Positions 13,711-52,838 of a stretch of DNA of 64,000 nt are shown one piece after another. The stretch is taken from NCBI GenBank assembly GCA_951406725.2, contig OX597825.1, positions 17,050,001 to 17,114,000 of the forward strand, read 5' to 3'. The translations under genes were made by a program, and so were the position numbers. How positions within the stretch are numbered: the stretch's first letter is position 1; each line of letters begins with the position of its first letter. The stretch comes from Octopus vulgaris. Taxonomy: Eukaryota. The notes below the pieces were generated by a model. The model did no database searches and had not been told where the DNA came from. It worked only from the letters and a program-made list of their open reading frames with translations.

Positions 13711-13788
13711 ATCTCGAAGAGATGGTGTTGTGGATTTCCACTCCGGCATCCAAAACTCAGAGTTTTATCTTGACTATTGAATAACTGC
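13711..13788 (+). ncRNA. Decayed hammerhead motif homologous to 28949-29030
   Basis: gaagagatggtgttgtggatttccactccggcatccaaaactcagagttttatcttgactattgaataa aligns by eye to gaagagatggcggcgtggatttctaactcggcatccgagactcggagttttatcatgactaccgaataa. Confidence 0.6.
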
Positions 13789-13808
13789 AACGTATATATA
13801 TAAGTGGC

Positions 13809-28183: not shown

Positions 28184-28496
28184 ATGCATACATACGAACA
28201 CACACACACATATATATATAGACATACATACATACACATACAAATCTGCACGTATACATACATACAAATATAGCCTGTTGTTGATGTTGAAATTCCAATG
28301 AAGGAGCCTCGTTTCTTGGTTACAAATCAGAACTTTCTCTATTGGCAAGCAATTATGACATAAAACTGAATAAGGACATACATACATACATAGATACATT
28401 CATACATATATACATTACATATATATATACATATATACATACACAAACACGCACGCACACATACACACATACAATGAGGGCGCAGAGCAAAGAATT

Positions 28497-28710
28497 TAGG
28501 ATATGTGGCTCACGATCGTAAGGTCGTGAGATCGATACTCCTAGGCTCGTTGTGTCCTTGAGGAAGACACTTTATTTCACATTCTTCAAATCAAATCACC
28601 TGAGAAAATTGAGTAGCACCTTTAATACAAAGAGCCAGACTTGTCACATTAAGGGTCATCACGCAGAATCTCCCTACTAACTATGTTAAGGGGTCGTGTT
28701 AGTTTCATAA
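28497..28710 (+). mobile_element. Old tRNA-type SINE of another family
   Basis: ggctcacgatcgtaaggtcgtgagatcgatac (tRNA-like head) followed by gttgtgtccttgaggaagacactttatttcac, a typical SINE post-tRNA segment. Confidence 0.55.
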
Positions 28711-28760: not shown

Positions 28761-28794
<34 letters not shown>

Positions 28795-28849
28795 GTATAT
28801 ATATGTATGTATATGTCAATGTAATATGTGACAATTATTCGGTAGTCAT

Positions 28850-28910
28850 GATAAGACTCCGAGTTTCGGATGCCGAGTTGGAAATCCACGCCGCCATTTC
28901 TTCAGTTATC
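28850..28910 (-). ncRNA. Type I hammerhead ribozyme motif (left arm)
   Basis: Minus strand: gataa CTGAAGA aatggcggcgt..actcggcatcc GAAA CTCGGAG TC ttatc. Helix I is gataa/ttatc, the triplet is GUC, and G10.1 is replaced by A. Confidence 0.75.
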
Positions 28911-28948
28911 CGGCCATCGGATTTTCATGCCACTTTTTCCGATGGCCG

Positions 28949-29009
28949 GATAACTGAAGAGATGGCGGCGTGGATTTCTAACTCGGCATCCGAGACTCGG
29001 AGTTTTATC
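28949..29009 (+). ncRNA. Type I hammerhead ribozyme motif (right arm, GAAA mutated to GAGA)
   Basis: gataa CTGAAGA gatggcggcgt..actcggcatcc GAGA CTCGGAG TT ttatc. Confidence 0.68.
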
Positions 29010-29115
29010 ATGACTACCGAATAATTGTCACATATTACAGTTACAGATAAATTCCTCTATTTACATAATATCGATGTCTCTTTCATTATTTTGTTGTCTT
29101 ACCATTTTTATCAAT

Positions 29116-29182
<67 letters not shown>

Positions 29183-52359: not shown

Positions 52360-52838
52360 TATGTTGTAGTACATGAGTAAAGAACAAAATAAGAATTTTT
52401 AACACCAACGTAAAAGCGGTGTTATTGTATGGGGCTGAGACATGGCGAACAACAGTTAAGTCAAATAAGCAAATAGAATCATTGCGTAGTATACTTAAAA
52501 TTAGATGGACCGAACACATAAGTAATATGGAGCTATGGCAAAGAACAAGTCAAGTTTCGATTAGGGATCAAATATTTAAGAAAAAGTGGAAGTGGATTGG
52601 TAGCACAATTAGAAAAGACACACCAAATGTAGCGAAAAGTGCTTTACAGTGGAAACCGGATGGATATAGAAAGAGAGGTAGGCTTAAGAACTCGTGGCGG
52701 AGATCAACACAAACGGAACTAGAGAAAGGGGGGCATTCATGGCAGAGAAAAAGTATAGAAGCAAAATTTACGCAACATGGAATTCAACTATAAGTGGTCT
52801 ATACTCCGCGTTGAAAGGTTAAAGGAAGAAGAAGAAGA
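52360..52838 (+). mobile_element. RTE-clade LINE 3' fragment with (GAA)n tail
   Basis: KIRIFNTNVKAVLLYGAETWRTT..LRSILKIRWTEHISNMELWQRT..KWKWIG..ALQWKPDGYRKRGRLKNSWRR; ends gaagaagaagaaga. Confidence 0.93.

Follow-up and report, generated by a model that had tools for sequence, protein, structure and literature searches.

The window, a stretch of 64,000 nucleotides from Octopus vulgaris (contig OX597825.1, positions 17,050,001 to 17,114,000 of assembly GCA_951406725.2), contains at positions 28811 to 29116 a short unit made of two inverted arms. The inverted repeat of two 102-bp arms described in an earlier note on this DNA was present as stated, with mismatches at 4 of 102 positions between 28820-28921 and 28938-29039 (28898/28961, 28880/28979, 28865/28994, and 28855/29004). 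When aligned to the family majority sequence, which was obtained from 27 ungapped copies, the left arm reached 28811, thus giving a full extent of 111 bp with 7 differences (6.3%). The left arm (28811-28921, minus strand) is an inverted, tailless pLTR copy that aligned to family positions 1 to 111 with 6 substitutions and stopped at the short end of the family, the identical site at which tailless arms stop elsewhere. For its part, the right arm (28938-29048, plus strand) is a direct pLTR copy with 5 substitutions compared to the family majority. It is followed, on this arm only, by the tail of a Penelope-like element (PLE) (29049-29116, plus strand), which in tandem copies continues into a 5' leader and an ORF (L012 and L044); the additional tail of the right copy had been noticed before, although it measured 68 nt and not ~75. 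The head-to-head junction, with one base common to both arms (28921), and the 16 nt of element that form the hairpin loop span positions 28921 to 28937 (plus strand). Since 13 of the 16 loop positions, read from the aligned rows, matched the upstream sequence of longer copies of the element, the loop belongs to the right copy and there is no spacer. The unit is a single head-to-head pair, and no head-to-tail tandem monomers were found at the locus. Tracts of (CA)n/(TA)n were seen on both sides, as previously described, at 28761-28810 and at 29117-29179 (repeat family D3); the right one may be duplicated target, and in such tracts a target-site duplication cannot be told apart from the repeat.

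No host gene was evident among the 54 stop-to-stop frames of at least 120 aa in the window, nearly all of which were simple repeats. A 138-aa frame at 52377-52793 (plus strand) is presumably similar to the C-terminal portion of an RTE-type LINE protein. Directly upstream of the unit, at 28480-28600, lies a very high-copy repeat that is probably the worn head of a tRNA-type SINE, given the B-box-like stretch present in related contigs. A pLTR of the young type described below, decayed and clipped at its 5' end, with a broken core and 79% identity to the unit, was observed at 13716-13795 (plus strand), followed by TA/TG repeats.

The right arm was used as the query in a search of its own genome (2.8 Gb, 227 contigs), which rendered 1,544 first-look candidates. 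Among the best 40 of these, which were scored, the other copies had 93 to 95% identity along almost the entire query. One 31-mer of the family was present in exact form 465 times in the genome, a lower bound for the copies of the subfamily, compared with 0 for the reversed control. In locus L012, the pLTR and its tail are followed by a leader, a start codon, and disrupted frames that bear reverse transcriptase (RT) motifs, including MRW and DKTK, and in L014 and L055 a GIY-YIG-type C terminus is followed by a 3' UTR and then by the pLTR; the Pfam GIY-YIG match of L014 was below threshold (E = 0.037). A protein search with the L012 piece yielded 7,153 candidates, and the 150 that were scored showed 85 to 88% identity, the query itself excepted. 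An open frame of 717 aa was present in 24 of these 150 matches, as counted by eye. These frames correspond to a younger sister subfamily (86% amino acid identity and 82% pLTR identity) with a tandem unit of 2.59 kb. Tandem copies were found in L012 and, with a spacing of 2.56 to 2.59 kb, in L044, L045, and L058. The ORF of these elements starts about 100 nt past the tail, and the subfamily of the window has a longer 3' UTR than its young sister. None of the loci fetched contained an intact ORF belonging to the subfamily of the window. Judging from these sequences, the unit is a PLE insertion whose own copy is truncated, the link between pLTR and ORF coming from the 717-aa subfamily and from the copies L012 and L014/L055. 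The earlier reading of the unit overlooked its origin as the truncated end of a protein-coding PLE. Two arrays were also observed in the genome. At G000:C2:102041900-102046118, four same-strand hammerheads of the window subfamily lie 1.37 to 1.43 kb apart, which is less than a full element and possibly reflects a deleted tandem derivative. At G000:C1:57208000-57225000 (L045 and L046), about five 2.58-kb units on one strand stand head to head with one full unit on the opposite strand, several of these units having full open frames.

The Hydra clade of C-terminal EN+ PLEs, as published, is defined by RWK, DKT, and CxCx5C motifs, a CCHH-free GIY-YIG at the C terminus, CxxC and CxH close to the conserved E and N, a length of <3 kb, and insertion into (TA)n (PMC8557442). 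The 717-aa frame contained MRWKA (RWK), SDKTK (DKT), CSCRNKELC (the CxCx5C linker), CGLC (CxxC), CPH (CxH), plus a GIY-YIG at the C terminus with no Cys inside its core (without CCHH). The unit of the young subfamily is 2.59 kb long, and TA flanks were found in nearly all loci. All the published clade motifs are therefore present, and we assign the element to the Hydra clade on this comparison of motifs, made by eye. It shares with Hydra-1_Obim and Penelope-13_HM (Craig et al. 2021, PMC8557442) the single ORF of an element of <3 kb, the RWK, DKT, and CxCx5C motifs, the C-terminal GIY-YIG, the (TA)n target, and the 3' hammerhead. The 717-aa protein was collinear with that of Hydra-1_Obim, which is listed from an octopus in the same source; about two-thirds of the RT-core residues compared by eye (32 of 50) were equal, the hammerhead is different, and the family of the window is distinct. 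Pfam gave no match in the 717-aa protein and a PDB search with it returned nothing useful. Its look-alikes in the Atlas at 0.96 to 0.99 carried HTH_animal, and lower-ranked ones carried GIY-YIG or RVT_1, on part of their members. With Pfam silent or below threshold, the RT and endonuclease call rests on the motifs, the likeness to the published protein, and the Atlas look-alikes. A first guess, the Naiad clade, was dropped because the endonuclease is C-terminal.

The layout of the unit was compared with that of other copies. After 8 duplicates were removed from 60 fetched loci, 52 distinct loci remained; these were the top-ranked matches to the arms of the window, and the sample hence leans to low divergence. 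An inverted partner was present within 1.5 kb upstream in 34 of the 52 loci (33 of 51 without the window). The centre gap of these pairs ranged from -4 to 934 nt, being 23 nt or less in 20 of the 34, and some centres held ORF fragments (L007, L008, and L024). Exactly one arm was tailed in 31 pairs, neither in 3, and both in none. Tailless arms ended at one fixed site, which in most loci adjoined (TA)n; the outer ends of the two arms thus fall at two fixed sites, both next to TA repeats. Among 18 pairs of the young subfamily, chosen as adjacent opposite matches of an exact 31-mer, 16 had the tail on one arm by exact motif, and the other 2 had a substituted tail on one arm. Published PLEs also show an adjacent, inverted, 5'-truncated copy with a tail at one end (PMC8557442 and PMC3846280), Penelope-13_HM being one such case with a hammerhead on both strands (supplement of PMC8557442). 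Pairs of hammerheads on opposite strands, 100 to 700 bp apart, were reported in PLEs in 2014 (PMC4209133); here the two motifs are separated by 38 nt. The tails also differ in length, those in print measuring 30 to 40 bp (PMC8557442) compared with 67 to 68 nt in the octopus elements, about twice as long. The divergent hammerhead hairpin is thus the habitual layout of this family, of a kind already published.

The same collection of loci bears on two further explanations. One of them is a non-autonomous palindromic element, MITE-like or retrozyme-like, that would move as a unit. The unit is indeed short and non-coding, with inverted arms and many copies. Animal non-LTR retrozymes are likewise non-coding, hammerhead-bearing, and derived from PLEs (bioRxiv 10.64898/2026.07.22.740005; PMC7229834), specifically from pLTRs according to the former source. 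However, retrozymes are head-to-tail tandem monomers, which the locus lacks, whereas here a single head-to-head pair has been cut from the end of an autonomous element. In addition, the junctions vary from locus to locus with the gaps given above, ORF fragments remain in some centres, and the junction of the window recurred in none of the 40 scored matches. We thus consider a mobile palindromic unit extremely unlikely.

The other explanation is an assembly artefact in the form of a long-read fold-back chimera, perfect-looking hairpins being a known class of such errors. The junction was unconfirmed in the public contigs listed: among the pieces listed from the contigs of four public runs, which were swamped by the repeat family, none bridged it at 90% or 99% likeness, so that the locus was neither confirmed nor denied, and none of the 24 public runs listed held half of the query words. 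Against a chimera, there are 7 differences between the arms over 111 sites, the left arm terminates at the biological short end of the family, and 33 other loci have the same layout, all of which makes the probability of an artefact close to negligible. The hairpin of the window is real, ordinary, and explained by the known layout of PLEs.

The two arms of the window have in common two bases that depart from the family majority, C44A (present in 0 of 72 other arms) and G76A (2 of 80). In the young pairs, the difference within a locus was 38 in 6,569 sites (0.58%) compared to 1.58% between loci, and 63 non-reference sites were common to both arms as opposed to 8 discordant recurrent ones. The shared rare bases and the lower within-locus difference indicate that both arms derive from one donor; later gene conversion between the arms could add to their likeness. 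We therefore read the unit, with a probability of roughly 0.9, as a heavily truncated head-to-head pLTR pair of a Hydra-clade PLE, likely produced by one insertion event and likely decaying neutrally since. This reading draws directly on the assignment of the unit to the family, the connection to an RT/GIY-YIG frame, the one-arm tail, the (TA)n-type target, and the donor variants common to both arms.

A possible route to such a pair is suggested by an element of another clade, Poseidon_Ac (Frangieh et al. 2024, PMC11167929), whose protein in vitro cuts and extends both target strands, with RT starting at two sites that bound the tail. By analogy, the enzyme of the octopus element would nick both strands of a TA tract, and RNA from a single donor would template two cDNAs, the tailed arm coming from priming at the far start site and the tailless one from priming at the near start site. 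Both cDNAs would stop early, after about 195 and 111 nt, and would then be joined head to head, the hammerhead being the standard pLTR ribozyme of the element, duplicated as a passenger. The two elements are alike in the tail bounded by two fixed ends, the AT-rich target, and the pLTR hammerhead, whereas the ORF of Poseidon_Ac starts inside the ribozyme and not past the tail. The two-strand priming step is carried over from this Poseidon-clade element and not from a Hydra one, and PMC11167929 leaves inversions unexplained.

The main rival to two-strand priming is fold-back of one cDNA, in which the same element would prime a single cDNA at the tail end and the inverted arm would arise by self-priming or by a template switch onto the new cDNA. 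Donor variants common to both arms and head-to-head joints are equally expected from such a process, self-priming has been proposed for the PLEs of Adineta (PMC3846280), and a 6-nt palindrome was found at 2 of the 18 young junctions (L092 and L095). Nevertheless, the fixed end of the tailless arm, adjoining (TA)n in most loci, is better explained by a defined start site than by stopping at random. Furthermore, each arm is truncated on its own, frequently with a loss of hundreds of bases, and in tandem-bearing insertions the tail may lie on either arm (L051 versus L052 and L057). Fold-back is accordingly a serious contender that we hold to be unlikely, and two-strand priming is preferred.

The hairpin had been called young, a description that did not hold. 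The arm-to-arm divergence of 6.3% in the window compares with a median of 5.6% in 24 other pairs, 15 of which did not exceed 6.3% and 9 of which did not exceed 3.9%; the median was taken over pairs with at least 60 aligned bases, 9 of the 33 other pairs being set aside, and it includes L063 and L069, which are probably misaligned. By comparison, the pairs of the young subfamily, picked by an exact 31-mer that favours identity, showed over 88 bases no mismatch in 11 cases, one in 5, and two in 1, and one more pair differed only by an indel. Substitutions outside CpG affected 18 of 719 core positions (2.5%) and 168 of 6,463 non-core positions (2.6%) among the copies, a sample that leans to close matches. 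The equal rates give no sign of selection after insertion, and they suggest that the insertion has likely been decaying neutrally.

Both arms read GAUAA-CUGAAGA-helix II-GA(A/G)A-CUCGGAG-U(C/U)-UUAUC, the shape of a type I hammerhead, which comprises helix I (GAUAA/UUAUC), the core CUGAAGA, a helix II region of 31 nt, a palindromic helix III strand, and a U(C/U) site. In a strict hammerhead scan, the two arms were the only matches in the window, in agreement with the earlier description of two divergent motifs of this type. Rfam gave no match in the window at the gathering score, and the 38 matches at an E value of 10 or less included no hammerhead; most of them were microRNA models, which were rejected because they fit any hairpin or CA/TA tract. 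The hammerhead call hence relies on the anatomy of the motif and its similarity to published Hydra-clade motifs. Hydra-2_aMil and Penelope-16_HM have the same helix III, ACUC-G-GAGU, and U17 triplets are common in the clade, whereas the octopus motif differs in its long helix II with one unpaired base before GAAA (PMC8557442). The hammerheads of PMC4209133 resemble it in the short helix I (5 bp), the enlarged helix II, the dimer-suited palindromic helix III, and the predominance of solitary truncated copies, and differ from it in that helix III is longer here (a 4-bp arm plus one central base).

Each motif carries one lesion. The left motif (28850-28910, minus strand) has a G-to-A change at the first base of helix II (28898), an intact GAAA, and a GUC triplet, with a predicted cut at 28855/28854 that agrees with the scissile bond previously proposed. 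The right motif (28949-29009, plus strand) has A14G (28994), which converts GAAA to GAGA, and a GUU triplet, with a predicted cut at 29004/29005. The two different lesions were therefore confirmed, but the label G10.1 given to the left one is uncertain: where helix II begins (10.1-11.1), a single base on the 3' side is unpaired in the family, which allows two registers, and the left arm lacks the G in both. The type I core (C3, U4, G5, A6, N7, G8, A9, G12, A13, A14, A15.1-U16.1, and H17) is present in the left arm and in the family majority, and A14G breaks it in the right arm. The helix II A of the left arm occurred in 4 of 70 other arms covering the site, its C17 in 1 of 79, and the A14G of the right arm in 0 of 75; the whole core was intact in 51 of 69 other arms. 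Both lesions are rare substitutions on this family background and look like decay. A composite of the two arms, which the earlier note expected to have an intact core, does equal the family majority, but the lesions would not complement each other, both being located in the enzyme strand (C3 to A15.1). In the dimer model, monomers swap no more than the helix III partner and the strand that is cleaved (PMC4209133, Fig. 1 legend); hence, mixing the arms would give no intact core.

Since a mismatch at the foot of helix II is frequent and tolerated in published Hydra motifs (PMC8557442), the left motif could retain some ribozyme activity. At the locus, however, the ribozyme is probably silent, given that read-through RNA from either side would make each sense motif after its own complement, zipping into the long hairpin, and that the right core has A14G. 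The competition between hairpin formation and ribozyme folding that had been anticipated was borne out by the computed energies, the long hairpin being favoured over the separately folded halves by 127 to 141 kcal/mol. These results bear on the possibility of a co-opted or self-standing bidirectional ribozyme cassette, in which divergent central transcripts would each carry a hammerhead cleaving by itself or in dimeric form. Helix I, the palindromic helix III (computed self-duplex, -9.7 kcal/mol), and most of the core are retained in both arms, the left arm has a GUC triplet, and pLTRs may hold promoters (PMC3846280 and PMC6765202). On the other hand, the right arm has A14G, the enzyme-strand lesions would bar an intact dimer core, only 16 nt lie between the arms, the cores show no sign of selection among copies, and the divergence is typical of the family. 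Such a cassette is very unlikely, and the stand-alone self-cleaving device on both strands proposed earlier gives way to the truncated end of a protein-coding PLE in its usual inverted arrangement.

The locus itself is of little weight beyond being a clean, small example of PLE inversion, and it serves as a warning that Penelope insertion yields divergent hammerhead hairpins in TA tracts as a by-product. Somewhat more weight attaches to the family, a large Hydra-clade element of recent activity in which many frames are open, the one-tail rule is strict, and the ribozyme core has changed; it offers material on how PLE inversions form and on what the pLTR ribozyme is for. Its youngest subfamily has the core CCGAAGA, that is, U4C, with 3,110 exact 31-mers versus 88 with the canonical core, and its helix III stays palindromic. 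In vitro, U4C reduces hammerhead activity, but in a viroid it was sufficient (PMC3088659), and ribozyme mutants of the Poseidon element still insert in vitro (PMC11167929). The U4C core is absent from the Hydra motifs listed in the supplement of PMC8557442; the literature on dimer-cleaving PLE variants may already include U4C or the bulge of helix II. We raise, as a speculation that is quite improbable, the idea that the pLTR hammerhead is less a cutter than an RNA pairing signal, whose palindromic helix III would join two templates of the same donor and thereby enable priming of both nicked strands at the two fixed start sites. No paper attributing two-armed insertions to helix III pairing was found in the parts of the literature searched. 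If true, it would explain two-armed insertions with the tail on one arm, and the U4C subfamily, with >3,000 copies and an intact palindrome, would be a natural test in which cleavage is dispensable and pairing is kept.

Copies of the U4C subfamily (L044:6824-7003 and genome-wide) were near identical and had 717-aa open frames, and some of them also had U at position 7. A third pLTR variant was found about 300 bp from a window-subfamily copy (L056:2325-2491, the same place as L010 downstream). This one related variant has the same tail, a shorter helix II, a CUGAUGA core, a GUA site, a swapped outer helix I pair, and a varied helix III centre.
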